A stretch of 64,000 nt of DNA. It comes from Isurus oxyrinchus. Its lineage: Eukaryota. Below the pieces are notes generated by a model that was given only the letters and a program-made list of their open reading frames with translations, ran no database searches and had not been told where the DNA came from. Location of the stretch: positions 1,116,001 to 1,180,000 of the forward strand of contig JANJGN010000151.1 in NCBI GenBank assembly GCA_026770705.1, given 5' to 3'. Both the position numbers and the translations under genes were made by a program. Below, piece by piece: positions 239 to 55,739 of this stretch (positions are counted from its first letter, which is position 1; every line of letters starts with the position of its first letter).

Positions 239-1330
239 AGATTGATATAAAGTGAGACAGTGCCTCGTGCAGTGATTACTAATGGAGGGTCTAGATCATC
301 AAGAACTGAGACAGGGCCTAGTGCAATGCTTACTGATACAGGATCTAGATTTATATGAACTGCGACATGCTCGAGTGCGGTGATTACAGACACAGATCTA
401 GATTAATATAAACTGAGACGGGGTCTAGTCCAGTGTTTACTGATATTGGGTCACCGTCAATATAAATTCAGACAATGTCCAGGGCAACGATTACTGATAC
501 GGGGTCTAGGTTTATATACACTGAGGCTGGCCATAGTGCAGTGATTACTCATACAGGGCTGAGATAAAAATAAACTAGGACAGGGGGTAGTGCAATGATT
601 ACTGATACAGGGTGTAGATCAATATAAACAGAGACAGTGTCCTTTGCACTGATTATGATATAGGGTCTAGATCAATATAAACTGAGGCAGTGTTCAGCGC
701 AGTAATTACTGATACAGGGTCTAGATTAATAAAACTTGTGATGGGGCCAAGTGCAGTGATTACTGTTGTCGGGTCTAGGTTGATATAAACTGGTGCAGGG
801 GATAGTGCAGTGATTACTCATAATGAGTCTAGATTAATATAAACTGAGACAGGACCAAGTGCAATTATTACTGATACATGGTCGAGATCAATATAAACTG
901 AGGCAGTGTCCAGTCGAGTGATTACTGATACAGGTCTTGATTAATATGAACCGAGACAGGGTATAGTGCTGTGATTACTGATACAGGTTCCAGCTTGATA
1001 TAAACTGAGACAGGGCATTGTGCAGTGATTATTGATACAGTGTCTAGATAAATATAAACTGGGACAGGGGCTAGTGCAATGATCATTCTTACAGTGTCTG
1101 GACTAAAATAAACTGAGTCATTCCCTAGTTCTGTCATTATTAAAACAGGTTCTGGACTAATATAAATTGAGTTAAGGCCTAGTGCAGTGATTACTGATAC
1201 AGGATACAGATTTATATAAACTGAGGCATGGCATAGTACAGTGATTACTGATACAGGGCTTCGATTGATATAAAATGAGACAGTGTCCATTCACTGATTA
1301 TGATGCAGGGCCAAGATCAATATAAACTGA

Positions 1331-1710
1331 AACAAAAACAAAAATACCTGGAAAAACTCAGCAGGTCTGGCAGCATCTGTGGAGAGGAACACGGTTAACA
1401 TTTTGAGTCTGCATGACTCTTCAACAGAACTAAGAAAAAATAGAAAAGGTGTGAAATATAATCTGGTTTTAAGTTGGGAGGTTGGGACAAGAAGAGCTGG
1501 ATAGAGGGCCAGTAATAGGTGGACATAACCAAAAGATATCACAGACAAAAGGACAAAGAGGTGTTGAAGGTGATGATATTATCTGAAGGAATGTGTTAAT
1601 TATGGGTAGAAAACAGGACGAGCAAGGTACAGATAGCCCTAGTGGGGGTGTGGTGAAGGAATTGAAAAAGGCTAAATGGTAGAGATAAAACAATGGATGG
1701 AAATATATTT
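1331..1710 (-). mobile_element. Penelope-like 3' fragment inserted in the satellite
   Basis: aaaactcagcaggtctggcagcatctgtggagagg...gttaac terminal motif, followed by sequence similar to 39420-39700. It interrupts the 54-bp array. Confidence 0.7.
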
Positions 1711-4700
1711 GGGTCTAGTGCCGTGATTACTGATACAGGGTCTAGATTAATAGAACTTGAGACAGGCCAAGTGCAGTGATTACTGCTAGAGGGTTTAGAT
1801 TGATATAAACTGATGCTGGGTCTAGTGCAGCGATTACTGACACAGGGTCTAGATCAATATAAACAGAGATAGGGTCGAGTGCAGTGATTACTGATACAGG
1901 GTCTAGATTAATAGAACTTGAGACAGGCCAAGTGCAGTGATTACTGCTAGAGGGTTTATATTGATATAAACTGATGCTGGGTCTAGTGCAGCGATTACTG
2001 ACATAGGGTTTAGATCAATATAAACAGAGATGGGAGCAAGTGCAGTGATTACTGATCCAGGGTCTATATAAATATATACTGGGATGGGGGCCAATGCAGT
2101 GATTACTGATACAGGGTTTGGACTCTTATAAACTGAGGCATTTTCGAGCTCTGTCATTATTCATACAGGGTGTGGACTCATATAAACTGAGACAGGGCTG
2201 AGTGAAGTGATTACTGATACAGGATCTGGATTGATATAAGAAGAGGCAGGCTATAGTGCAGTGATTACTGATATGGGGTCTAGATCAATATAAACTGAGA
2301 CAGATCATAGTGCAATGATGACTGTTACAGGGTCTATATGATAAAGACTGAGGCAGGGCATATTGCAGGGATTACTGATACAGGGTCTACATTAATGTAA
2401 ACTGTGACAGAGCCTAGTGCAGTGATTGCTGATACAGGGCCGAGGTAAATATAAAGTAGGACAGAGGCTAGTGCAGTGATTAATGATACAGGATCAGGAT
2501 CAGTATAAACTGAGGCAGTGTCCATTGCAGTGATTACTGATACAGGGCCTAAATTAATATGAACTCAGGCAGGGCCTAATGCAGCGATTACTGATTTAGG
2601 GACCAGATTAATATGAACTGAAGCAGGCCATAGTGCAATGATTACTGATACTGGGTGTAGATCAATATAAACTGAGACAGGGCCCAGTACAGTGATTACT
2701 GATACATGGTGTAGATCAATATAAACTGAGACAGGCCCTAGTGCAGTGATTACTGATAGACGGTCTAGGTTGATATAAAGTGAGGCAGGGCCTAGTGCAG
2801 TGATTACCGACACAGGGACTAGAGTAATATAAACTAGGTCAGGGGCTAGTGCAGTGATTAATGATATCAATGATACAGGATGAGGATCAATATAAACTGA
2901 GACAGTGTCCATTGAAGTGATTATGGTTACAGGGTGTACATCAGTATAAACTGAGATAAGTTCCACTGATGTGATTAATGATGCAGGGTCTGGATTAATA
3001 TAACATGAGATAGTGTCTAGTGCAGTGATCACTGATCCAAGGTCTTGATAAATATAAAACTGAGATAGTGTCTAGTGCTGTGATTACTGATACATGGTCT
3101 AGATTAATATGAACTGAGGCACAGACTAGTGTAGCCATTACTGATTTAAAGTCCTAGATTGAAATAAACTAAGACAGGGCATATTGCAGTGATTGCTGAT
3201 ACAGGGTCTAAATTATTATAGGCTGGGGCAGGGCATATTGAAGTGATTACTGATACAGGGTCTAGGTTAATAGAAACTGAGAGAGGGCAAAGTGCAATGA
3301 TTATAGATTCAGGGTGCAGATTATTATAATCCCAACAGGGACGAGTGCAGTGATTACTGAAACAGGGCCTTGATTAATATAAACTGAATCAGGCTTTTGT
3401 ACAGTAATCACCAACACACGGACTGAATTAACATAACCTGAGACAAGGCCTGGTGCAGTGTTCACTGACACAGGGCCCAGATAAATATAACTGAGACAGG
3501 GGCTCGGGCAGTGATTACTGCTGCAGGAACTAAATTAATGTAAACTTTGATACGGCCTAGTGCAGTGATTACTGATACAGCATCTAGAATGATTTAAAAA
3601 AAACTGAGGCAGGGCATAGTGCAGTGATTGCTGATACAGGGTACAGATTTATATAAACTCAGACAGGGCCTAGATAAATATAAGCCAGGCCAAGGGCTAG
3701 TGCAGTGATTAATGATACAGGATCATGATCAATATAAACTGAGACAGTGTCCTTTGCAGTGATTACCGATACAAGATCTAGATCAATATTAATGGAGATA
3801 GGGCCCAGTGCAGTGATTACTGATAGAGGCTCTGGACTAATATAAACTGAGACAGGGCCTAGTGCAGAGATTACTGATACAGGGTCTTGATTGTTATAAA
3901 CTGAGTCAGGGCATTATGCAATGATCCAAATGCAGGCTTTATGTTAATATAAACTGTAACAGGATCTTGTTCAGTGATTACTGATACAAGGTCTATTTGA
4001 TATAAACTGAGGGAGGGCATATTGCAGTAATACAGAGCCTAGATCAATATATATGGAGACAGTGTTCATTGCAGTGATTACTGATGCAGGGTCTTAATTA
4101 ATAAAAGTGGAGACACTGCCAAGTGCAGTGATTACAGATACAGAGTCTAGGCTGATATAAACTGAGGCAGACCATAGTCAGTGGTTACTGATACTGGGTC
4201 CAGATAAATTTTAAACTGAGACAGGCTCTAATGCAGAAAGAATTTTTGCAAAGTCTAGATCAATAGAAACTGATGCAGGGTCTAATGCAGTGATGATTGA
4301 TACAGGGTATAGATTAATATAACCTGAGACAGGGCCTGCTGTATTGATTAAAGATACAGGGTCAAGATTGATAAATACTGAGGCAAGGCATAGTGCAGGG
4401 ATTACTGATACAGGGTCGAGATTAATTTAAATTGAGACATGGTTTGGTGCAGAGCTTACTGATAGAGAATCAGGATCAATATAAACTGAGACAGGGGCCC
4501 AGTGCAGTGATTACTGACACAGGGTCTAGCTTAATATAAACTGTGGCAGGGCTCAGTGCAGTGATTACTGACATTTGGTCTCAATCAATATAAACTCAGA
4601 CAATGTCCAAAGCAGTGATTACTGATACAGGGCCGAGATAAATATAACTTGAGGCAGGGCCTACTGCAGTGATTACTGATACAGTGTTTAGGTTAACAGA

Positions 4701-5093
4701 AACTAAGAGAGGGCCAAGTGCAGTGATTGTAGATTCAGGGTGCAGATTATAATAACCAGAACAGGGACGAGTGCAGTGATTACTGAAACAGGGCCTTGAT
4801 TAATATAAACTGAGACAGGGTCTTGTACAGTAATTACTGATACACGGTCTGAACTAACATAAACTGAGACAGGGCCTGGTGAAGTGTTCATTGATATAGG
4901 GCCTAGATAAATATAACTGGGACAGGGGCTCGGGCAGTGATAACTGACACAGGGTCTAGGTTAATATATATTGAGATGGGGCCTAGTGCAGTGATAACTG
5001 AAACATGGTCTAGATTCATAAAAAAAAGCTGAGGCAGGACATAGTGCAGGGATTATTGATAAAGGGACTCGGCTAATATCAAGTGAGACAGAG

Positions 5094-5150
5094 ATAAAAA
5101 CAAAGAAAACTGCGGATGCTGGAAATCCAAAACAAAAACAGAATTACCTG
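5094..5150 (-). mobile_element. 57-bp truncated Penelope-type end with 13-bp target-site duplication
   Basis: Insert (aaaactgcggatgctggaaatccaaaacaaaaacagaattacctg) is flanked by aagtgagacagag at 5081-5093 and 5151-5163. Confidence 0.75.
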
Positions 5151-6680
5151 AAGTGAGACAGAGTCTAGTGCAGAGATAACAGATGTGGGACCACGATCAA
5201 CATCAACTGAGATAGCTTCTACTGTGGTGAATCCTGATACAGGGTCTCAGTCAATATAAACTCAATGTGCAATGCAGTGATTACTGATACAGAGCCAAGA
5301 TAAATATGAAATGAGGCAGGGCCTACTGCAGTGATTACTGATACAGGGTCTAGGTTAATAGAAACTGAGAGAGGGCCAAGTGCAGTGATTATAGATTCAG
5401 TGTGCAGTTTATTATAACCAGAACAGGGACGAGTGCAGTGATTACTGAAAAAGGGGCTTGATTAATATAAACTGAGATCGGCTCTTGTATAATAATTACA
5501 AATACACGGTCTGAACTAACATAAACTGAGAAAGGGCCTGGCAAAGTGTTAATTGATATAGGGCCTAGATAAATATAACTGGGATGAGGCTCGGGCAGTG
5601 ATAACTGATACAGGGTCTAGATTGATAAAAAAAAAAACCTGAGGCAGGACATAGTGCAGGGATTACTGATACCGGGCCGAGATTAATATAAACTCAGAGA
5701 GGGTCAAGTGCAGTGATTACTGGTATAAGGTTCAAATTGATATAAAATGACATAGGGTCTACTGCAGTGATTACGGATATAGGGTCTAGACTGATATGAA
5801 CTGAGACAAGGCCTGGTGCCGTGATTTGTGTTACAGGGTTGGATGCATATAAAATGGGACAGGGCCTAGTGCAGTGATTACAGGCACAGGCTTTAGATTA
5901 ATTGAAACTGAGAAACAGTCCAGTGCAGTGCTTTTAGGTTCAAGGTGCAAATTATTAATACCAGAACAGGGTTGAGTGCAATGATTACTGAAACAGGGTC
6001 TTGATTAATATAAACTGAGACAGGCTCTTGTGCAGTAATTACTAATGCAGGGTCTGAACCAACATAAACTGAGACAGGGCCTGGTGAAATGTTCACTGGT
6101 ACAGTGCCTAGATAAATACAACTGGGACAGGAGCTCTTGCAGTGATGACTGCTGCAGGGACTAAATTAATATAAACTGAGGCTGGATCTAGTGCAGTGAT
6201 TACTAATAAAGGGACTAGACTAATATAAAGTGTGACAGAATTTAGTGCAGAGATAACTGATGTGGGGTCAAGATCAATATAAACTGAGACAGGGTCTGTT
6301 GCAATGATTACTGATACAGGGTCTAGATCAAAGTCAACTGAGACAATGTCCATTGCAGTGATTACTGATCCAGAGTCTTAACTGATAAAAACTGAGACAG
6401 GGCCTAGTGCAGTAAGTAATGTTACAGGGTCTAGATTAATATAAACTGAGAGAGCCTCAAGTACAGAGGTTACAGATACAAGGTCTAGATTATTATATTC
6501 TGAGACAGATCTAGTGTGGAGACTACTGATACATGGTTTAGCTCAATATAAACTGTGGCAGGGCACAGTGCAGTGATTACTGATGCTCTAAAGTAATGTA
6601 AGGAAGACAAGGTCTAGTACGGTGATTACTGATACAGGGTCTAGATTGATAAAAACTGAGGCAGGAAAAAATATAATTCT

Positions 6681-7774
6681 AAAATTGGCTTAGTTGTTGG
6701 AGAGAGAGGGTGATGACAGAAGGACACTTTATTAACTGGAAGCCAGTGTCCAGTCATGTACCACAGGGATCTGTGCTGGGTACCCCATTATTTATTATTT
6801 ATATAAACAAAAGTAGATGCCTACATGTGGGGTAGGATTAGTAAGTTTGTGGAGGACACAAAGATTGACCGGTTGGTTAACAGTGATGTTCAGTGCTTTG
6901 GGCTACAGGAAGATATAGATGGAATGGTCAAATGGGCAGATAAGTGGCAAATAGAATTTAGCACTGAAAAGTGTGAGGTGATACACTTTGGAAGGAATAA
7001 TTTGACTAGGAAGTATTCAATGAATGGGATGACACTAGGAAGTTCTGAGGAACAAAGGGACCTTGGTGTGTGTGTCCATAGGTCTCTGAAGGCAGAGGGG
7101 CATGTTTGTCAGGTGGTGAAAAAGGCATATGGGACACTTGCCTTTATCAATCAAGGCATAGATTACAAAAGTAGGGAGGCCATATTGGACTTGTATAGAA
7201 CCTTGGTGAGGTCACAGCTGGAGTACAGTATGCAGTTCTGGTCGCCAGATTATAGGAAGGATGTGATGCACTGGAGACGATGCAGAGGAGATTCACCGGG
7301 ATGTTGCCTGGTATGAAACATTTAAGTTATGAAGAGAGGTTGGATAGACTTGGGTTGTTTTCAGTGGAGCAGAGAAGACTGAGGGGAGACCTGATCGAGG
7401 TGTACAAGATAATGAGAGGCGTGGACAGGGTGGATAGGGAGCAGCTGTTGCCCTTAGTTGAAGGGTCAGTCACAAGGAGACATAAGTTCAAGGTGAGGGG
7501 CAGTAGATTTAGGGGGCTTTTGAGGAAAACCTTTTTTACCCAGAGGGTGGTGACAGTCTGGAATGCACTGCCTGGGAGGGTAGTGGAGGTGGGTTGCCTT
7601 ACATCCTTTGAAAAGTACCTGGATGAGCACTTGGCATGTCATAAAATTCAAGGCTATGGACCAAGTGCTGGTAAATGGGGTTAGGCAGGTAGGTCAGGTG
7701 TTTCTCACGTGTCGGTGCAGACTCAATGGGCCAAAGGGCCTCTTCTGCACTGTGTGATTCTGTGATTCTGTGAT
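6681..7774 (+). mobile_element. CR1-clade LINE, 5'-truncated (RT C-terminus + 3' UTR)
   Basis: ORFs 6825-7316 and 7280-7684 contain KFVEDTKI, KWQIEFSTEKCEVIHFG, LFSVEQRRLRGDLIEVYKI and FFTQRVVTVWNALP. Ends in a (gattctgt)n tail. Confidence 0.95.
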
Positions 7775-8599
7775 AATATAAACTGATATTACCGATAGAA
7801 GTCTAGATCAATATCAAGTGAGACAGCGTCTAGTGCAGTGATTACTGGCACAGAATCTAGATTAATATAAACTGTGACAGGGCCGAGTGCAGTGATTACT
7901 GACACAGGGACGAGATTATTATAAACTAGGACAGGGGCTAGTTACTGATACAGGATCAGGATCAATATAATCTGAGACAGTGTCCTTTCCAATGATTAAT
8001 GATAAAGGGTCTGGACTAATATACACTGTATCAGGGCCAAGACCAGTCATTACTAATACAGATTCAGGATTAATAGAAACTGAGAGAGGGTCCAGTGCAG
8101 TGTTTACTGATACATGGTCCTAATCAATATAAGCTCAGACAATGTCCAGTGCAGTCATTACTGATACAGGGTCTGGATTAATAAAAACTGAGACAGGCCT
8201 AGTGCAGTGGTTACTGATGCAGGGTGTAGGTTAATATAAACCCAGACAATGTCCAGTGCAGAGATGACTGATACATGGTCTGGATTAATGTAAACTGAGA
8301 CAGGGTCCACTGCAGTTATTAATGATTCAGGGTCTAAATTAATATAAACTGGGACTGTGTCTAGTGCATTGATTCCTGATATATGGTCTGGACCAGAATA
8401 AACTGAGACAGGGCCAAGTGCAAGAATTACTTCATCATTGATGCCCATATCCTAAGAACGAATTAAAACACTGCAAAATACTACAGATTCTGGAAATCAA
8501 AAGCAGGGCAAAAAATAACCACTCAGCAGGTCAGTGGGCATCAATAGAAAGAGAAACAGGTCAAACGTTCAGGCCAATGACAGGTGCAAAATCTCCCTT

Positions 8600-10719: not shown

Positions 10720-11510
10720 CGACCGTGACCCTGTCTCTCTTTATATTACAGTCGACCCTGCCTCTGTTTGTATTACACTAGGCTCTGTCCCTGTTTATGT
10801 TGCACCCAACATGTCTCTGTTTATATTGCACCAGACGGTGTCTCTGTTTACATTGCACTAGGCCCTGCCCCTGTTTATATGACACTCAACATGTCTCTTT
10901 ATATTATATTAAACCTGCCTCTGTTTATATTGCATGAGACGCTGTCTCTGTTTATATTGCACTAGGCCCTGCCCCAGTTTATATTACACTAGACTCTGTT
11001 TCTGTTTATGTTACACTGATCCCTGTTTTGGTTTACATTACATTAGACCATGTCTCTGTTTATATTATATTAGGCTCTGCCCCTGTTTGTATTACACTTG
11101 ATATATCACTGTTTATATTACACCCGGCATGTCTCTGTTAATATTATACTCGACATGTCTTTGTTTATTCTGCACTAGACGCTGTCTCTGTTTATATTGC
11201 ATTAGATCCGGTCTCTGTTTATTTTGCACGAGGCCCTGCCCCTGTTTATATTAAAGTGGGCCCTGTATGTTTATAATACACTAGACCCTGTCTCTATTTA
11301 TATTACACTGGACCCCATTTCTGTTTATATTACTCTAGATCCTGTCTTTGCTTCTATTAAATAAGGCCTTGTCTCTGTTTATATTATAATTGACCTGTCT
11401 CTGTATATATTAATCTAGAACTGTCTCTGTATTTCAGTAGCCACTGTCTCAGTTCTGTGCTAGATCATATCTGTATTTAAATTACATTAGACCCTGCTTC
11501 TGTTATTACT
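10720..11510 (-). repeat. ~27-bp tandem repeat, reverse-complement relative of the satellite A monomer
   Basis: Unit ctagaccctgtctctgtttatattaca; its reverse complement tgtaatataaacagagacagggtctag matches the satellite monomer. Confidence 0.85.
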
Positions 11511-21646: not shown

Positions 21647-21951
21647 GTGTCCTGTCGGAGGTTGTGTTGACTCAGCCAGAGGCAGAGACCGGGCGTCCCG
21701 GAGGCTCCCTGAGACTGACCTGTAAAACCAGCGGCTTCGATCTTGGCAGCTACTGCATGTACTGGGTCCGACAGGTTCCCGGACAGGGGCTGGAGTGGCT
21801 GCTTTACTACTATAGTTCATTGGACAACATCTATGCCCCAGCAATTAAGAATCGATTCACTGCGTCCAAAGACACTTCAAGGAATATCTTCTCCTTGGAC
21901 ATGACGAGCCTGAAGACTGAAGACACCGCCATCTATTACTGTGCAAAAGAC
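21647..21951 (+). CDS. IGHV: IgM heavy-chain variable segment (VH), open frame
   Basis: Acceptor ttacag|gt. Translates [51 protein letters not shown]...[11 protein letters not shown], with canonical Cys, Trp and YYC. Confidence 0.98.
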
Positions 21952-22351: not shown

Positions 22352-22434
22352 AGTTTTTGTGCGGGTGTATTTCACTGTGATACTACAGCAGTGGGTCACA
22401 GTGCTGTGCACAGCGACATCCTCACACAAAAACC
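22352..22434 (+). other. D1 diversity segment (atactacagcagtgggt, 22380-22396) with 5' 12-RSS and 3' 22-RSS
   Basis: agtttttgt-12-cactgtg | D | cacagtg-22-acaaaaacc. Confidence 0.96.
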
Positions 22435-22744: not shown

Positions 22745-22772
22745 AGTATTTGACATGGTGTGTCTCACTGTG
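22745..22772 (-). other. 12-RSS in front of the J-containing segment
   Basis: Nonamer-like agtatttga (22745-22753), 12-nt spacer, cactgtg (22766-22772). No nonamer at 22/23 spacing. Confidence 0.85.
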
Positions 22773-22821
22773 TATATGCTGGACTACTGGGGGAAAGGGA
22801 CCATGGTGACGGTGACTGCCG
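22773..22821 (+). CDS. IGHJ: JH segment, probably a germline-joined D2-J (YMLDYWGKGTMVTVTA)
   Basis: WGxGT motif and donor g|gtaag at 22822. Preceded directly by a 12-RSS and short D-like tatatgctgga. Confidence 0.92.
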
Positions 22822-23620: not shown

Positions 23621-24589
23621 CGCGTTTGTATCTGCTTGAAGCGCGATTGTAGGCAGAAAACAAACAGGCTTCAGAAATGGGCAAAAAAACATTTAAAGAT
23701 GTGTTAGAACATTTTGTCTTTATTTTAAGTGGTAATTGCAGAATAAACTAAACCATGGATTATGACGCTCATTCTGAACATAATTCGTTACTGCAATCAG
23801 AAACTATACAATTCCCAAGTTTTCAAATTGTAGAGTAAAATTAATGCAATTCAAACAATTATAATGCAGTAATATTTCTCCATATTGACGGAACATTTTT
23901 CATATTAATCTAATTGATCATTAATCGCCTTTCACAATTCTGCTGTCTCTGCGCACAATTAACACGATTGGGAAAGTTTTTAGGATGGAAACATTTTGTG
24001 ATTATGCATGAAAAAATCTCAGTAAGAATATACTGACTCTACAGAATTGTTCAGTTTCAAAAGAGATTTTGAATTACTTTTTTTATGTCCATGATAACAT
24101 TTGCATTGACTTAAAGAGGAGTTTGATATTGCAGTTTGGCAATATGGCTATTCGGTTATTACATTCTTTCTGTGAAGCCGTAACCACATTATTCCTTCAA
24201 TGTCATTGGGAGTTGGCTAGCGAGAGAATTGTCACTTATCTAATTTTAAACAGTTTAGTGGGGGGGGGGGGGGGGGGGGGTGGGTGGGGGTTTAATTCGC
24301 TGGCAGTAAAATAATTGTTCTTACATTTTTTGAACTGCAGGAAGGTGCAGACCGCATATAAATAGAGACTGACAAGTAAAAGCTTGAAACTCGAACAGAT
24401 TAATTTAATGGCAAATATTAGTATTCGTTTTGAACTTAATAACAACATTCTGTCTCCCATAGCTGTGCTGTACACAGGATAGAATTATAGGAGAAGAACA
24501 GATTATATCTGAGATTCATGCATAATTCTTATTAAATATTAAATTGAAGAACAATATTTGCGCCCTCCATTCAGTCAAATCATGGCTGA

Positions 24590-25460
24590 TCTACCTCGAC
24601 ACACTCAGTGTCTTTACCACACACCCTCACTCGCTCACTCTCACTGTCACACACACTTTCTCTCACATACATGCACACACACTCTCTCACGCAATCTCTC
24701 TGACAGACATACACTCTCTCTTTCTCTCTCTGTCACACACACACACTCACTTTCTCTCTCACACACACAAACTCCCTTTAACACGCACACACTGTCTCTC
24801 ACACATTGTCTCTCTTTTTCACACACACTCTCACACAGACACATTCTCTCATACACATACTCTCTCAACTGCGCACACACATACACACTCTCACCCTCAC
24901 ACATGCATGCACTCTTTCTTTCTCACACATGCACTCTCACACATGCCATTCTCTCTCTCACACACACATGCACACCCACTCTCTCTCACACATACATGCA
25001 CCCTTTCTCCCACACATATACACTCTCTCAATTCTCCCCCTCTCTCACACACAGACACATAACACTGTCTCACACACACACATCTTCATTCTCTCTCTCT
25101 CACGCACACAGAAACACAAACATATTCCCTTTCTCACACAGAAACACTTCTTCTCACACACGGACTCTCTCTCATTCTCTCTTTCTCTCTCTCTGACCCA
25201 CACACTGGCCCTCTCCTTCACACACTCTCTCCCACACACACACACACACACACAATCGCTCTCTCTCTCTTCCATATGCTCTCTCTCTCACACACACATT
25301 TCTTTATCTCACTCTCACACTTATACTCCCTATGACACTCTCCCTCTCTCACATACACTCACAAGCACCCACACACACACTCTCTCCCACCCACACTCTT
25401 AGTCTTTTTGTCTCTCTGTCTCTCTCTCTCTCTTTCTCACGCAGACACACACACCCATTC
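24590..25460. repeat. Degenerate (CA)n/(CT)n microsatellite tract
   Basis: Visible low-complexity sequence; the overlapping His/Thr/Ser/Leu ORFs are artefacts. Confidence 0.95.
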
Positions 25461-25877
25461 TCAAACACAGAAATGGGCTGAAAATGTTAATTTCAGAAAG
25501 AAAACCCGCTAAGCTGCAGGCATGTTTATTGTTCCATTTCTGATGTCTTTTTGTGTAAAATGAAATTACACAAGTGACATCACTATATATGTGGAGAATT
25601 TCCAAGTGTTGAGCCAAACACAAAGAAACAAGAAAAAGGGAAGGATGTGATGGAGACCACGGCCGCCTGGATCCCCAATACTGGTGCACACTTGGTGCAA
25701 GATGCCTGCACGGCCCATCCTGGTTTTGCTGTAACATTCCCCTCCAGCCCCCTCAGTCTGCCTATTCACGCACTGACACGGGTTTCTCAAAGAAAGGCAT
25801 CAGCATTAAAGCAGCTGGCCAGCGATCTACACTGCTGCCTGACTTTACACAGCCAGTGTTACTGAAAGCTGATCAAT

Positions 25878-26054
25878 ATGGAGAATTGGGACAAGTTCGA
25901 CTGAGAGGAAGAGGAGGGGATGGAGGTGGAGGTGGAGGTGGAGACGAATGGAGGAGCCCCCAGCTCGGCTGTGGACAACAGGCAACGGAAAGCTGAGCCG
26001 GCGCAGAAAATCATCTGGAAAAACATCACCATGATGAGCCTGCAGCACCTGGGC
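25878..26054 (+). pseudogene. Stearoyl-CoA desaturase (SCD5-like) N-terminal exon fragment with premature stop
   Basis: MENWDKFD*EEEEGMEVEVEVETNGGAPSSAVDNRQRKAEPAQKIIWKNITMMSLQHLG resembles the SCD pre-TM1 motif (IVWRNVVLMSLLHLG). It is cut off by the CTCA repeat. Confidence 0.7.
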
Positions 26055-26645
26055 ACCCTCACTACCCACAATCACTCACCTTCACTCACCATCACTCACA
26101 CTCACTCAATCACCCTCACTCAGCCACCCTCACTCACTCACCCTCACTCACCCTCACTCACACTCACTCAATCATCCTCACTCACCCACCCTCACTCACT
26201 CACCATCACTCAATCTCACTCCCTCACCTATTCTCACTCAGCCTCACCAATTCACCCAGCTTCACCCACCCTCATCCACTCATCATTAATTACTTTAACC
26301 TTCACTCACTCACCCTCACTCACTCACCCTCACTTACCCTCCCATCCTCACTCACGTACCTTCAGTGACACTCAATAACTCATCCACCCGCACTCACACA
26401 CCCACTCACCCTCACTCACATACCCACCCTCACATACCCACCAACCCTCACTCAGCCACTCGACTACCCTCATTCAATCACCCACGCTCACTCACCCACA
26501 TTCAGACACCCACCCACGCCCACTCAGCACCCACCCTCACTCACGCCTTCACTCACCACCAACCCTCACTCACTCTGCCACCCTACCTTGCTCTGTCACT
26601 CAGCCACCCTCACTTTGTTAAACATGCACACGCTCACTCACTCGA
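26055..26645. repeat. C-rich (CTCA/CCCTCA)n low-complexity repeat
   Basis: Visible in sequence. Confidence 0.9.
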
Positions 26646-26769
26646 TCACTTTCCATAAATCGGTGTATAGGAGGGCGGGAACTGCGGGGAACAGAGACCT
26701 GGAAGCGAGGCCTGAGGCCTAGCAGTGCCAGAAAGTGAAACATGGCTGAAGGGAGCGACGAGCTTCATT

Positions 26770-28200
26770 GGAAAGTGCAGGGAGGCGGGGGGAAAGCTCG
26801 GAGAGCCTGGGGGAAAGGGCAGGGAGGCGGGGGAAATGGCAGAGAGCCGGGGGGGGGGGGGGGTGGGGTGGTGTTGGGGGGGAAGGGTAAGGAGCCGGGG
26901 AAAAGGGCAGGGATCCAGTGGAAAGTGCTTTGGGATGGGGCAAAGGTCAGCAAGCAGGGGGAAAGCTCAGTGAGCCAGTGGAAGGCCAGAGAGGCAGAGG
27001 AGGAGGAAGGGCAGAGAGACGATGGAAAGAGCAGAGAGGTGGGGGGGGGAAAGGGCAGAGAGGCGAGGGAAGGGCATAGAGGTGGGACAGGGAAAGGGCA
27101 GAGAGGCGGAAGGAGGAAAGGGCAGAGAGGTGGGAGGGGGAAAGGGCGGAGAGGCAGGAGGGCAAAGAGGTGGAGGGTTGACAGGGGAGAGAAGCGGGGA
27201 GTGGGACAGGCAGAGAGGTGAGGGGAAACGGCAGTGAGGTGGCAGGAGGAAAGGGCAGGAATGTGGGTGGGGGAAATAGCAGAGAGGCGGCGGGGGAAAG
27301 GGCAGAGAGGAGGGTGGGCAGAGAGGCAGGGGGGAAAGGGCGGATAGCAGGGGAGGAAGGGCAGAGAGGAGGGAGAGCAAAGAGGCAGAGGGGGGAAGGA
27401 CAGAGAGGTGACGGAAAGGGTAGATAGTCGATGGAAAAGGCAGCGAGCTGGGGTAAGGGCAGAGAGGCGAGGGTGTAAGGGCAGAGAGGCGGGGTGTAAG
27501 GGCAGAGAGGTGGGAGAGGGAAAGGGCACAGAGGTGGGAGTGGGAAAGGGCAGAGAGGCGGGTGGGAAAGGGCAGAGGGGTGGATGAGGGAAAGGATAGA
27601 GAGGCAGAGGAAGGAAGGGCAGAGAGGTGATTGAAAGGGCAGCGAGCCAGGGGAACGGGAAAAGAGCAGTGGAAAAGGTCAGAGCTGGGTGAAAGCACAG
27701 AGCGCGGTGAAATGTGTGCAGAGACCTGGGGGAGAAAGGGCAGAGAAGTGATGGGGAAAGGGCAGAGAGGCGGCAGATGTAAAGGGCTGAGAGGTGGGAG
27801 TGGAAATGGGCCGAGAGGCAGGAGGGGGAAAGGGCACAGATGCAGGAGGGGAAAAGGGCAGAGAGATGTGTGGGAAAGGGCAGAGAGGAGGGGGAAAGGG
27901 GACAGAGACGGGAGAGGGAAAGGGGCAGAAAGACGGGGGTGAAGGGCAGAGCGGTGGGTGGGGAAGGGCAGAGCGGCACGGGGGTCTGGGCAGAGAAGCA
28001 GGGGGTGGGACATGCAGAGAGCTGGGGGAAAAGTGAGCGAGCCAGTGGAAAAGGTCAGAGATCCGGGCGAAAGTGAATAGAACCGTGGAGTAAGTGCAGA
28101 GAGCTGGGGTACAAAGGGCAGAGTTGGGGGGGGGAGGCGGGTGGGCAGGGCAGGGAGGTGGGGGTGGGGGAAGGACTGAGAGCCGGGCAAAAGCTGGGAG
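26770..28200 (+). repeat. G/purine-rich tandem repeat (core ggaaagggcagagagg, ~20-25-bp units) in the J-Cmu intron
   Basis: Dozens of units with G runs of 3 or more; strong G skew on the sense strand. Confidence 0.95.
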
Positions 28201-28689
28201 AGCCGGGCGAAAGCAGTTGCGAGCGGGAGCCCCAGACGCCCTGGGCCCCACGCTCTCTAACTCTTTCTTTCTCTATCCCTCATTGTCTCTCCTCCTCCTG
28301 AAATCTATTCCATCCCTGGAGAAAGGCACTCAGTGCCTGGGATGGATGGGAGACAATGTCTCTGTGCGCTTCCCCCGGGCTCCCTGCGCCTTTCTCCAGC
28401 GGGTGTTCGCTGCCCCTCCAATCACAACCTGTTTGTCTCCCACTTTTACTGCTGATAGGCCCGCTAGTCAGCCTATCAGCAGCTAATGGGTAGGAGACTG
28501 GGGGAAGGGGTGTAAGGGCAGAGAGGCGGGAGAGGGAGGAGCAGCTCCTTACAGATATCTTCAATTCCACTTACCCACCTGACCAGCATTTAGAACAAAG
28601 GCTCTGGGGGCCATATAGAGGGGCTTCGGGGGCCACAATCCAGCCACAGGACATGGATTGGACAAGCCGGTAATAAAGGAAAATAAGGA

Positions 28690-30250
28690 AATGGGCTGAG
28701 AAGTTGGACAAATATTTTGGCCTTAACGAGGTGGTTACTAAAATAGCAGAGACATTGTTTTTAATTTTCCAAATTTCCCCAGATTCTGGAAAGGTCTTAT
28801 CAGATTGGAAAATAGGGAATGAGTCTTTTATATTAAATAAAGGAGGGAAAGGGAAAGTAAGAACCTGCAGGCCAGTTAGCTTAACATCTGTCTGAGCGAA
28901 AATGCTGGAATCTATTAAGGCGTTTACCACGGGTCACTTAGAAAATTCAAATGCAATTAGGCATTTGACCCACAAACCCATCTTGGTTTTGTGAAAGGGA
29001 AATCATGTTTGGCTGAAATATTTGAGGCCTATAGAGGAAGTAACAAAGAACATGAATAAAGGAGAACCTGTGGATGTGCTGTACTTGAGCTTCCAGAAGG
29101 CATTTGACAAAGTGGCACATCAAAGGTTACTGCACAAAATAATGGTGTCGGCAGTTACATTTCAGCATGGGTAGAAGTTTGGTTAGCTAACAGGAAACAG
29201 AGAATAGGGATAAATTGATTATTTTATGTTGGCAAGATGTGACAAGTGAAGTGCCAATGGATCAATGCTGCTGCTTCACCTATTTACAATTTATATCAAT
29301 GATTTGAATGAAAGGACTGAATGAATTTGCTAAATTTGCTGATGACACAAAGATAGATAGGAAAGTAAATGGTGAAGAGGGCATAAGGGCAGCAAAGGGA
29401 TATCGATAGGTTAAGTGAGTGGGCAAAAAAATGTCAGTTGGAGTATAATCTGAGAAAATATAAACGTGTCCACTTTGGCAGGAAGAATACAAAAGCAGCA
29501 TATTACTGAAAGGGAGAGAGATTGCAGAACCCTGAGGTACAGAGGAATGTGGATCCCTTGGTGCATGAATCACAAAAAGTTGGAATTCAGGAATAGCAAA
29601 TGATGAAGAAGGCATGTTGGCATTTAGTATAAGGGGAATAGATTATAAATGGAAAGATATCTTACTACAGTTTAATGGGTTGGCGATAAGACCTCGCCTG
29701 AATTACTGTGTACAGATTTGGTCTCATTTAAGAAAGGATATAAAAGCATTAGAAGCTGTTCAGAGAATGTTCATTCAAATGATACTGGGAGGTGTCGTCG
29801 GTTATCTTATGAGGAAAGTATGGATAGGCTGGGCCTGTATCGATTGGAGTTTAGAAGAATGAGAGCTGATTTTATTGAAACACATTACATCTTGAGGGAA
29901 ATTGACAGGGTGGATGTTGAAAGGATGTTTCCCCTTGTGAGAGAGACTAACGATAGGGAACACGGTTTAAAAATAAGAGGTCTCCCATTTCAGACGGAAA
30001 TGAGAGGGTTTTATTTTTCTCTCAAAGGGTCGTGAAACTTTGGAACTCTCTTCCCCAGAGAGCGATGGAGGAGGAGTCATTAAAATTTCAAGGCAGAGGT
30101 AGAGAGATTCTTCATTGACAAGGGAGTCAAAGGTTAGCCGAGAGGAGGCGGGAATGTGGAGTTAATGCCACAATCGGATCAGCTATGACCGGAGTGAATG
30201 GTGGAGGAGGCTAGAGAGGCCAAATGGCTACTACTGATCCGCATGTTCAT
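28690..30250 (+). mobile_element. CR1-clade LINE (decayed RT + 3' end)
   Basis: DWKIGN...RPVSLTSV, DFQKAFDKV-like ttccagaaggcatttgacaaagt, aaatttgctgatgacacaaag (FADDTK), LEFRRMRADFIE. Confidence 0.92.
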
Positions 30251-30809: not shown

Positions 30810-31109
30810 TGACACCGTCTTCGCCCACTCTCTACAGCCTGGTCTCCTCCTGTCAGCAACACAACACCGACGGCTCCGTCACCTACGGCTGTTTGGCGAT
30901 GGACTACTCCCCAGAAATCACCAGCCTGACCTGGAAGAAAGATGGGCAGCAGATCACCACTGGATTTAAGACTTACCCGTCAGTGAGAAACCAGAAGGGA
31001 ACCTACACTCTGAGCAACCAGTTAACCATCACCGAGTCAGAGGGGGAATGCAGCATAATCAAGTGTGAGGTTCAACACAGTGTCTCAGACAAGAGCGTTA
31101 AAATGCCAT
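30810..31109 (+). CDS. IGHM: IgM Cmu1 exon
   Basis: Acceptor ttcccag|tg. [45 protein letters not shown]...[16 protein letters not shown]. Donor t|gtaagt. Confidence 0.97.
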
Positions 31110-31308
31110 GTAAGTGTTGGGGAACCTGTGAGAAACAGAAAGGCTGTGATTGACCTGTAGAGGGCCTTGGTTATAACGCATTAATAGTACTCTGCATAGT
31201 TCTGATCCCTGGAAATTCCAGGTTAGTGTCCATGGTTAAAATATAAGAACTCATTGTATCTGTTATCAATTTCTTCTGCAAGAAATGGCTAACCTGTGTT
31301 TTTTGAAG

Positions 31309-50538: not shown

Positions 50539-51782
50539 GCATAAAACAGGGAAAATTTACAGAAATGAAACTCAAATCAAACATCACGTCAAGACCTGAC
50601 GGTCACTCGATTCATCAGCACCTGAATATCGTCGGCCTTTGAATGCAGCACAAGAAATTTTTGTCTGTAGGAAAAGATTTCAAACATCAGTGTGGCTGGA
50701 AAAGCACCAAGACACACACACCCAAGTGAGTGTCCCAGTGAACTGACTGGAAAGAGCTTTAACCAGTTACAGAGCCTCAAAAAAAATCACACCATTCTCA
50801 GCGGAGAGAAAGTGTACCCCTTTTTCTGTGTGTGGACGAGACTTCAACTGATCATTCAACCTGGAGAAGCACAAGGACACCCGCACCATGGAGAAAGCAT
50901 GGAAATGTGGGGACTGTGGGAAGGGATTCAATTATCCATCCAAGCTAGAAACACATCGACGCAGTCACACTGGGGAGAGACCGTTCCTCTGTTCTGATTG
51001 CGGGAAAGGATTCACTCAGTTATCTACCTTGTTAACACACCAGTGAGTTCACACTGGGGAGAGACCATTCACCTGCTCCGTGTGTGGGAAGGACTTTACT
51101 AAATCATCTACCCTGACTGAACACTAGCGAGTTCACACCGGGGAGAGGCCATTCAGTTGATCTCACTGCAGGAAGAGATTTGGACGGTCATCCAATCTCA
51201 CTGAACATCTCCGTGTTCACACTGGAGAGAGACCGTTCACCTGCCCCGTGTGTGGGAGGAGATTCACTTGTTTAACCAACCTCACATCACACCAACTTCT
51301 TCATACTGATCAGAGACCTTTTCAATGTTCAGACTGTGATTCTGGCTTTAAAAGCACAAGGGATCTGCTGATACACCAACGCAGCCACACCGGGGAGAGG
51401 CCGCTCATCTGCTCCGAGTGTGGGAAGGGATTCACTCACGCATCCAACCTGCTGGCACACCAGCGAGGCCACACCGGGGAGAGGCCATTCACCTGCTCCA
51501 AGTGTGGGAAGAGATTTCGTCGCTCATCCGATGTTCAGAGTCACCAGTGAGTTCACATGGGGAGGATCCGTTCAGCTGCTCTGTTTGTGGGTAGGGATTC
51601 ACTCACTCATCCACCCTGCTGAGATACCAGCGAGTCCACAAGTGACTCCAGGGGTTGGATTCTGTTGTTAATGACATCCAGGAATGAACCATGTTCATCC
51701 TGATAGTTGGGCTTTGTTTCTGCTGATGTTAATAACCCCATATAATGGTGTGAATTTAATGTTGTGACAAGTGCCAAATAAA
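50539..51782 (+). pseudogene. C2H2 zinc-finger array pseudogene (~9-10 fingers, HTGERPF linkers)
   Basis: Tandem fingers with in-frame stops at 51044, 51125, 51158 and 51548; AATAAA at 51777-51782. Confidence 0.9.
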
Positions 51783-54029: not shown

Positions 54030-55739
54030 AATGTTTCAGCAGGCTGTAAGACTGAGTAAATCGCTTCTCACACACAGAGCAGGTGAACGGTTTTTCCCCA
54101 GTGTGAACTCGCTGGTGTCTCAGCAGGCGGGATGAATCAATGAATCCTTTCCCACACTCAGAGCAGGTGAACAGCTTCTTCCCGCTGTGAGTACATTGAT
54201 GCCTCAGCAGGCCGAACGAATGAGCGAATCCCTTCCCACACTCGGAACAGAGGAACGGCTCTCCCTGGTGAGGGTGCGTTGGTGTTTCAGCAGGTCATTG
54301 CTTCTTTTAAAGCTCTTTCTGCATTCAGAACATTGAAAAGGTCTCTTATCAGTGTGAACGCGTTGGTGTTCAGTGTAGTAGGACAACTGAGCAAATCTCT
54401 TGCTACACACAGAGCAGGTGAACAGCCTGTCCTCAGTGTGAGTGCGTCAGTGTCTCTGGAGGCTGGATGACTCAGTGAAACCCTTCCCACACACAGGGCA
54501 TGTGAACCACCTCTCCCCAGTGTGAATAGTCCGGTGTCTCAGCAGGTGTTGTAAACAAGTAAATCTCTTCTTGCACACGGGGCAAAGGTACGGCCTCTCC
54601 CCAGTGTGAACACGCTCGTGTATCACAAGGTGGGACAAACGAGGGAAACTCTTCCCACACATGGAACAGAGGAACGGCCTCTCCCCGGTGTGAACTCGCT
54701 GGTGCTTCAGCAGATAGCAGGATCGAGTGAATCCCTTCCCACACAGCGAGCAAGTGAATGGCTTCTCCCCAGTGTGCACCCACTGGTGCTTCAGCAGGTC
54801 AGCTGGCTGAACGAATCCCTTCCTACATGCGGAGGTGAACGGCCTCTCTCCAGTGTGAATACTCTCGTGTGTCAAAAGGTGTGAAAATCGAGTGAATGTC
54901 TTCCCACACACAGAACAGAGGAATGGCCTCTCCCTGGTGTGAACACGCTTGTGTGTCAGAAGGTGAATTGAATGAGTGAATCTCTTCCCACACACGGAGC
55001 AGGGGAACGGCCTCTCCCCAGTGTGAATGCACCGTTGTCTCAGCAAATTAATGCTTCTTTTGAAGGTCTTCTCACATTCAGTACATTTAAAAGGTCTCTT
55101 TTCTGAGTGGACCAATTGGTGCTCAGTGTAGTGGAAGGACTGAGCGAATCTCTTCCCACACTGGGAGCAGCTGAACGGCCTGTCCTTGGTGTGAACTTGC
55201 TGGTGCTCAGTGAGATGCACTGACTTGCTGAATGACTCCCCACATTGGGAGCAGCTGAACGGCCTCTCGTGTGTGTGAAGGAGCTGGTGCTCCACGAGGC
55301 AGGAGGACAGCCTGAACCTCTTCCCACAGTGGGAGCAGCTGAACGGTCTCTCGTAAGTGTGAACTTGCTGGTGTTGGGCCAGTTCCTTGGAGATTTCAAA
55401 GCTTTTCTCAGAGTCAGAGTATTGAAGAGGATCCTCATAAATGTGATCAAGCTGGTGTGCCAGCCGGTTGGATGAACACATGAATTTCTTCCCATACACT
55501 GAGCAGGTGAACAGTCTCTCGCTATTGTGAGTTCGCTGTCGTGTCAGCATGTTTACCAGCTCCATCAATCCCTTCCTACAGGAGGAGCAGGTAAGCAGCC
55601 TCTCACCAGTTTCCAGCTGAGGCAGTCAATTAAATCCTTTCAGATGTATGAATCTTCAGATTCCAATGAACCGATTGACCCTGTCAGATGTGAGGTTTGG
55701 TTTGCTTTATCTGACTGCAAATCCTCCTCCTCTATTATC
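54030..55739 (-). pseudogene. C2H2 zinc-finger gene, truncated or pseudogenising (ORF 54447-55568: ~8 intact + ~5 degenerate fingers; further fingers beyond a stop and a frameshift)
   Basis: 373-aa ORF with TGERPF linkers. In-frame TGA at 54447-54449 falls inside a finger, the frame continues to a -1 shift near 54260, and the acceptor tttacag lies at 55740. Confidence 0.85.

Follow-up and report, generated by a model that had tools for sequence, protein, structure and literature searches.

The window, a 64,000-nucleotide stretch of Isurus oxyrinchus DNA, contains an immunoglobulin M (IgM) cluster with open V, D1, J and Cmu1-4 segments. The exon order V-Cmu1-4 was obtained by tblastn, and the closest matches of Cmu1 are catshark proteins (83-85%). 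Within the J-C intron of this cluster, downstream of J and upstream of Cmu1, lies a long G-rich tandem array. The segments of the cluster and the array are as follows.

21649..21950, + strand: VH exon with an open frame, then a 23-spacer RSS (V-set domain match, translation, RSS scan)
22372..22388, + strand: D1 segment between a 12-spacer and a 22-spacer RSS (RSS scan, sequence)
22773..22821, + strand: J segment preceded by a 12-spacer RSS (RSS scan, comparison with an unjoined cluster)
26770..28200, + strand: expanded G-rich minisatellite with a unit of about 24 bp, AGCT-poor and a predicted R-loop and G4 former (repeat finder, composition)
30839..31110, + strand: Cmu1 exon with an open frame (C1-set domain match, translation)

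The J segment (22745-22821 together with its RSS) is likely a germline-joined D2-J, because its 12-spacer RSS sits at the position of the D2 5' RSS in an unjoined cluster. Another locus, L247, resembles a D1-D2 joined cluster instead. About 2.9 kb of the J-C intron, present in most paralogues, is missing from the window cluster (24557-24600, compared with 1367-4350 of L093). Other repeats surround the cluster: long 27/54-bp tandem arrays occur upstream of the V gene (239-8422 and 10727-11430), and 84-bp periodic repeats downstream of the cluster (50965-51640 and 54059-55373) resemble arrays of C2H2 zinc fingers and run on opposite strands. P0020, a protein with 89% identity to shark Cmu4, carries the label Aeromonas veronii; it derives from a 742-bp contig and is probably host contamination of a bacterial assembly.

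An earlier sequence-only reading of the window had described 1.4 kb of tandem G-rich units on the non-template strand, 2.6-4 kb upstream of Cmu1, and this description proved accurate. The array measures 1,431 nt, with 757 G, 424 A, 143 C and 107 T on the + (non-template) strand (53% G, 30% A), and ends 2.6 and begins 4.1 kb before Cmu1. It is degenerate; Tandem Repeats Finder reports a period of 24 with 46 copies at 26982-28005. The motif positions given earlier are exact as well, with GAGCTGGGGT at 27445 and 28101 and GAGCTGGG additionally at 27682 and 28019. Motif counts were compared with 2,000 dinucleotide shuffles, in which the dominant unit GGGCAGAGAG (15 in the array) averages 0.23 and GAGCTGGGGT (2 in the array) 0.02. 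AGCT shows a mild excess, with 7 occurrences against 3.15 in shuffles, 1.6% of which reach 7. Neither GGGGT (10 vs 8.7) nor WGCW (22 vs 27.5, below the shuffle mean) is enriched over these shuffles. Across the 1-kb bins of the window, the AGCT z-score at the array is -0.6 to 1.3, which bears out the earlier caution about low AGCT density. RGYW on the + strand reaches the top of all 64 bins there (z 2.97), because the unit contains GGCA.

The physical predictions for the array, whose calculation the earlier reading had proposed, are positive. G4Hunter scores are at least 1.2 over 57% of its 25-nt windows, and a simple purpose-made model predicts an R-loop-forming sequence at 26673-29132. By both predictions, the array is the strongest non-template-strand site in the window. 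The recurrence of the unit near 28510, also remarked on earlier, was found at 28495-28535, where it displaces part of the normal 3' palindrome sequence of the surrounding transposon. This copy is limited to the window cluster and two loci nearly identical to it (3 of the 43 loci in which the anchor was found), and the sequences suggest a local templated change in these clusters.

These properties invite comparison with mammalian S-mu, as described in the available parts of two papers (PMC2193334, PMC4245955). Both are kilobase-long tandem repeats located in the J-C intron, ahead of the first C exon, with a G-rich non-template strand that contains G clusters, and isolated GAGCTGGGGT motifs are found in both. 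Unlike mammalian S-mu, the shark array has fewer WGCW than its shuffles average, lacks counterparts ahead of the other isotypes examined, and stems from a transposon. The mouse S-mu repeat model, (GAGCT)3GGGGT in the portion of PMC2193334 consulted, computes to about 150 AGCT per kb, roughly 30-fold more than the 5/kb of the window array. Axolotl S regions, which the accessible text of PMC9911811 describes as found by AGCT density, occupy the same intron position. The axolotl S-mu exceeds an AGCT z of 4 in 2.5-kb bins there, in contrast to 0.5-0.8 for the shark array within the 64-kb window. Thus, the suggestion of an S-mu-like target holds for position, strand and the G4Hunter and R-loop predictions, but not for AGCT and WGCW, which stand at background and below the level of the ancestral tract described below.

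The array is part of a larger mobile element. The remaining parts of the element, and the repeat that follows it, are listed here.

24600..25460, + strand: CT/CA microsatellite tract of the transposon (repeat finder, comparison with dispersed copies)
25470..25820, + strand: unique internal transposon segment (comparison with dispersed copies)
25820..26059, + strand: captured, broken fragment of stearoyl-CoA desaturase exon 1 (78% identical to the gene exon at L099, G000:C1)
26060..26640, + strand: C-rich CACTCACC minisatellite of the transposon (repeat finder, dispersed copies)
26640..26770, + strand: conserved transposon spacer preceding the G tract (dispersed copies)
28240..28670, + strand: transposon 3' arm with an internal palindrome (terminal inverted repeat at 28655-28670)
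28671..30250, + strand: high-copy LINE fragment directly past the transposon end (genome search), presumably CR1-type

A reading-frame fragment 700 bp upstream of the array has matches at 75 genomic places, many of them outside Ig loci. At L099 the first exon of the gene is intact, complete with its start codon and splice donor. It matches acyl-CoA desaturases of solved structure (E 2e-9), and the gene is presumably SCD5 rather than SCD1. The window fragment ends before the splice donor, and Pfam detected no family in it. Within the unique segment, the short stretch 25685-25745 corresponds to DNA that precedes the desaturase start codon. One transposon subfamily has taken up 5' sequence of this gene along with most of its exon 1 (window 25685-26059; L099 4868-5237), and it occupies about 18 non-Ig places among the matches listed, besides the IgM copies. 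The window and the non-Ig places share one order of parts: CT tract, unique segment, desaturase fragment, CACTCACC tract, spacer, short G-rich tract and 3' arm. Many of the non-Ig copies are partial.

Dispersed copies with both ends present terminate in inverted repeats starting CAGGCTTGTCCAA. The 19-nt 5' terminus has 341 exact occurrences genome-wide, 173 on the + and 168 on the - strand, against 0 for the control, and the 3' arm gave 1,537 first-look candidates. Of the distinct dispersed copies, 18 had both termini within the retrieved DNA; 11 of these have 8-bp flanks with at most 2 differences (3 of them perfect), mostly of the form nnnTAnnn. Copies range from 0.8 to 19 kb in total length, with micro- and minisatellite tracts that can expand. 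Judging by the inverted repeats, the 8-bp duplications and the dispersal on two strands, the element is a non-autonomous hAT-type (Buster-type) DNA transposon. The earlier caution that the array might be a minisatellite brought in by a larger insertion was thus well placed. In the window copy, only the 3' end is kept (28670); a search upstream of the CT/CA tract did not recover the 5' terminus or the first ~400 bp, and the missing 5' end makes the target duplication unreadable at the IgM copy.

The nnnTAnnn 8-bp target duplication is a mark of Buster-family hAT elements in the part of PMC3517528 available. Like Mar of Drosophila, described in the same text, the shark element has short inverted repeats beginning with CAG, nnnTAnnn 8-bp duplications, no coding capacity seen and hundreds of copies in both orientations. 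It differs from Mar and the Buster family in its several expandable tracts, in the captured exon piece of one subfamily and in the lack of a 5' end in the IgM copy. A second parallel is offered by Pack-TYPE transposons, non-autonomous DNA transposons that likewise spread host-gene fragments. These are described in plants in the portion of PMC8903248 consulted, whereas the shark case involves a broken piece of desaturase exon 1.

The history of the array among antibody loci was followed in the upstream DNA of related clusters, retrieved via Cmu1 and desaturase-fragment searches. This yielded 57 loci with Cmu1, a number that is not a gene count because the assembly seems to hold duplicate cluster copies; the window and L031 are ~100% alike. 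At least 8 units on the same strand are held by 55 of the 57, and the exceptions are L049, where the array is cut down, and L095, with a diverged 1.1-kb tract. A further locus, L128, has lost the array. One identical transposon-LINE junction is found in all 39 of the 57 loci that retain the 3' end. This indicates a single insertion, so the common orientation counts only once, and presence in paralogues was ruled out as a sign of selection. In a close relative (organism B), one contig bridges the same junction with 43 and 93 letters; this single contig bears on the junction and not on the array. The C26 locus L247, a candidate empty pre-insertion site, was rejected as such because it looks like a later deletion (87% identity, with a jump across element and LINE).

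Distribution outside this group is restricted. A two-unit pattern has 337 matches genome-wide, all located: 332 fall within the IgM loci of this group, and the other 5 belong to a satellite on C5 that is unrelated to the array; a generic genome-wide satellite is thereby ruled out. At that place (G000:C5 140.04-140.08 Mb, L090-L092), the GGCAGAG-rich satellite fills all three 10-kb stretches. In answer to the question of dispersal raised by the sequence-only reading, the expanded unit is confined to IgM loci, but the transposon itself is spread over both strands. By hand count in a Cmu4 search (150 scored of 745 candidates), a second IgM group has ~50 entries against ~66 for the first. The element and any 500-bp window with 45% G are absent from all 23 second-group loci examined, 16 covered to J or nearly and 7 for 6 kb upstream of Cmu1. 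Both are also absent from four other IgM loci on C26, three IgNAR and two IgW-like loci. C26 stretches without Cmu1 (5.87 Mb, L248, L251) were excluded from these counts. The IgNAR assignment rests on VNAR and IgNAR C1 matches in one cluster and on the same layout in two, and the IgW-like clusters, each with a VH-type V and about eight C-type matches, are presumed to be IgW. The expectation that other clusters would carry the array was therefore borne out for strand and position in the first group, but not in the second IgM group, IgNAR or the IgW-like loci examined.

Both IgW-like clusters contain another repeat shortly before the first C exon, a 1-2 kb array of a 69-bp satellite with 14-17 AGCT/kb and 19% G (L240-L241, G000:C88 ~512.2-514.2 kb; L228). 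It was considered as a switch region and rejected: the satellite has 16,974 exact matches across the genome and little G, and these introns hold only this satellite. In effect, partner S regions were not found before other isotypes in the IgNAR, IgW-like and second-group IgM loci examined. On this feature and on AGCT/WGCW density (2.9 AGCT/kb over 55 arrays), the array is not a member of the S-region family.

The same observations bear on the idea that the array is a primordial switch region, a homologue of tetrapod S-mu that descends from the common ancestor. The S-mu position and strand and the two exact GAGCTGGGGT motifs would agree with such descent. However, the array lies inside a transposon whose dispersed copies bear the same GAGCTGGG units, and its AGCT density falls far below that of the mouse model. 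It is also missing from the second IgM group and from the more diverged paralogues L249 and L250 on C26, which look like outgroups with ~72% intron identity, and this makes it younger than these splits. A common origin with S-mu is accordingly highly improbable.

How the array reached its present size can be seen by comparison with dispersed copies. Among 30 of these, the median G tract is ~200 bp long, vs 1,684 bp (314-3,461) among 55 IgM copies. The dispersed set favours short tracts, having been selected for resemblance to short copies and trimmed to 1.5 kb on each side. Copies without an anchor, and hence uncounted, made up 27 of 60 dispersed and 4 of 59 IgM loci; L154 and L164, whose anchors were false matches on the opposite strand, were dropped, together with L194 (a giant array, treated apart), from the dispersed median. 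AGCT density runs the other way, with 10.4/kb in dispersed copies vs the 2.9/kb of the IgM arrays. Inside the latter, it is 2.3/kb in the middle and 4.2/kb at the ends, with 2.9/kb in the remaining intron. The GAGCTGGG motifs of the window are units of the ancestral tract, and the part expanded in IgM is an AGCT-free variant unit. Tracts above 800 bp occur in 2 of 31 dispersed copies, one of which is a copy on C16 with an 813-bp G tract.

The other long tract belongs to a copy on C15 (G000:C15 ~53.181-53.200 Mb, - strand; L194, L198-L200), which is complete, with 19,235 bp, both ends and a perfect 8-bp duplication. Its array spans 15,867 bp with 638 AGCT (40/kb), 575 GAGCTGGG motifs and 56% G, and is unique to that place. 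No Ig-domain match was found within the 70 kb retrieved around it; only the non-Ig N-terminal part of P0015 matched, and this array was ruled out as an Ig switch region. The non-Ig C15 array is far more S-mu-like than the IgM array. Together with the C16 copy, it also shows that array growth is a habit of the transposon.

In view of this evidence, the array is very probably the internal G-rich minisatellite of a hAT-type transposon that was inserted once in one IgM J-C intron, expanded, and was copied with the gene family, most likely as a neutral passenger and a predicted R-loop and G4 former. Its likeness to a switch region is likely a coincidence. In the proposed sequence of events, a Buster-family transposase would have mobilised the element, one copy of which landed in the J-C intron of one IgM gene. 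The G tract then grew from ~200 bp to a median of 1.7 kb, probably by slippage or unequal exchange, and spread as IgM clusters duplicated; the 5' terminus would have been lost by deletion. Most likely the array has no selected function, since its retention is no better than that of the parts beside it (55 of 57 loci, vs 54 of 57 for the unique segments on its flanks) and AID hot spots were lost from it. The anatomy of the element, its dispersal, the single junction, the expansion to a longer IgM tract and its restricted distribution are demonstrated.

Some observations run against the passenger reading. The array is kept even where one flank is gone, with upstream parts lost in L042 and L065 and downstream parts in L038, L054 and L063, and its orientation is the R-loop-forming one. 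Additionally, tracts of such length are rare in the element, the unit is restricted to IgM clusters, and the + strand RGYW maximum of the window lies there, although the GGCA in the unit explains it. A rival reading is an exapted proto-switch region, in which a tract that arrived by chance and expanded would now focus AID breaks through R-loops and G4 in activated B cells, aiding V exchange in one IgM group. The tract lies in the right intron and on the right strand, measures 1.3-3.4 kb in most copies with 50-55% G, is covered by a predicted R-loop, is widely retained, and would give matching partners by being long and common to many clusters. A rearranged Ig cluster is transcribed through its J-C intron. 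With such transcription, and with 46% G having supported switching in mouse cells in the available part of PMC4245955, by which the 53% G and G runs of the shark array would be enough for R-loops in mouse cells, R-loops likely form at the array in shark B cells on the passenger reading too, and some incidental AID activity may follow.

The wider setting is given by two reviews, which in the portions seen describe shark loci without S regions and AID-linked V exchange between clusters, IgM-IgW in both directions (PMC4279169; PMC8201067). Although such exchange would favour a proto-switch role, it also involves IgW, and the IgW-like loci examined have no array, nor do the IgNAR and second-group IgM loci examined. 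V exchange in general cannot depend on a tract that IgW-like clusters and about half of the IgM clusters lack. AID hot spots were, moreover, diluted rather than gained in the expansion. For germline exchange, the only kind this comparison addresses, no hot-spot signal was found at the array among the 31 of 57 loci with all six segments; pairwise distances on its two sides agree with a Spearman value of 0.86, the highest of 15 pairs, and concordance as high as anywhere in the intron gives no sign of an exchange point. Overall, exaptation of this kind is unlikely. Slightly less probable still is the broader proposal that a GAGCTGGG-type minisatellite seed repeatedly grows switch-like arrays and that the IgM copy, having grown ~eightfold, is now a de novo proto-switch for some 60 IgM clusters, with ~50 others lacking it. 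The earlier suggestion of a 'primordial' or dedicated AID and recombination target is not supported, as the paralogues inherit one transposon insertion and a more S-mu-like array stands at the non-Ig C15 site.

Selection might instead act elsewhere in the transposon, for example on a regulatory element in the unique or desaturase-derived part, with the G array riding along. The unique segment is about as conserved as other intron parts, is present in 54 of 57 loci and contains DNA from the 5' end of a gene. Its mean divergence (0.072), however, equals that of the LINE fragment (0.074), and L042, L065 and L049 do without it, so the chance that such a function explains the locus is very small.

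The main result is that the array fails as a switch region. Far from antibody genes, a transposon seed can give rise to S-mu-like arrays of up to 16 kb and 40 AGCT/kb, which calls for caution in naming switch regions from sequence alone. The element itself also exemplifies, in a vertebrate, the capture of a gene fragment by a hAT-type transposon. No description of the element or its capture was found in the literature searched, which did not cover primary shark switching papers, and the element may be new. If the proto-switch reading were true, these loci would allow the rise of switch regions from transposon repeats to be followed in a living animal, with controls in the same genome. In this shark, two large IgM groups, with and without a kilobase G-rich R-loop-prone intron tract, stand side by side in one genome as a natural contrast, which could be used to test whether G-richness without AGCT density draws AID breaks.
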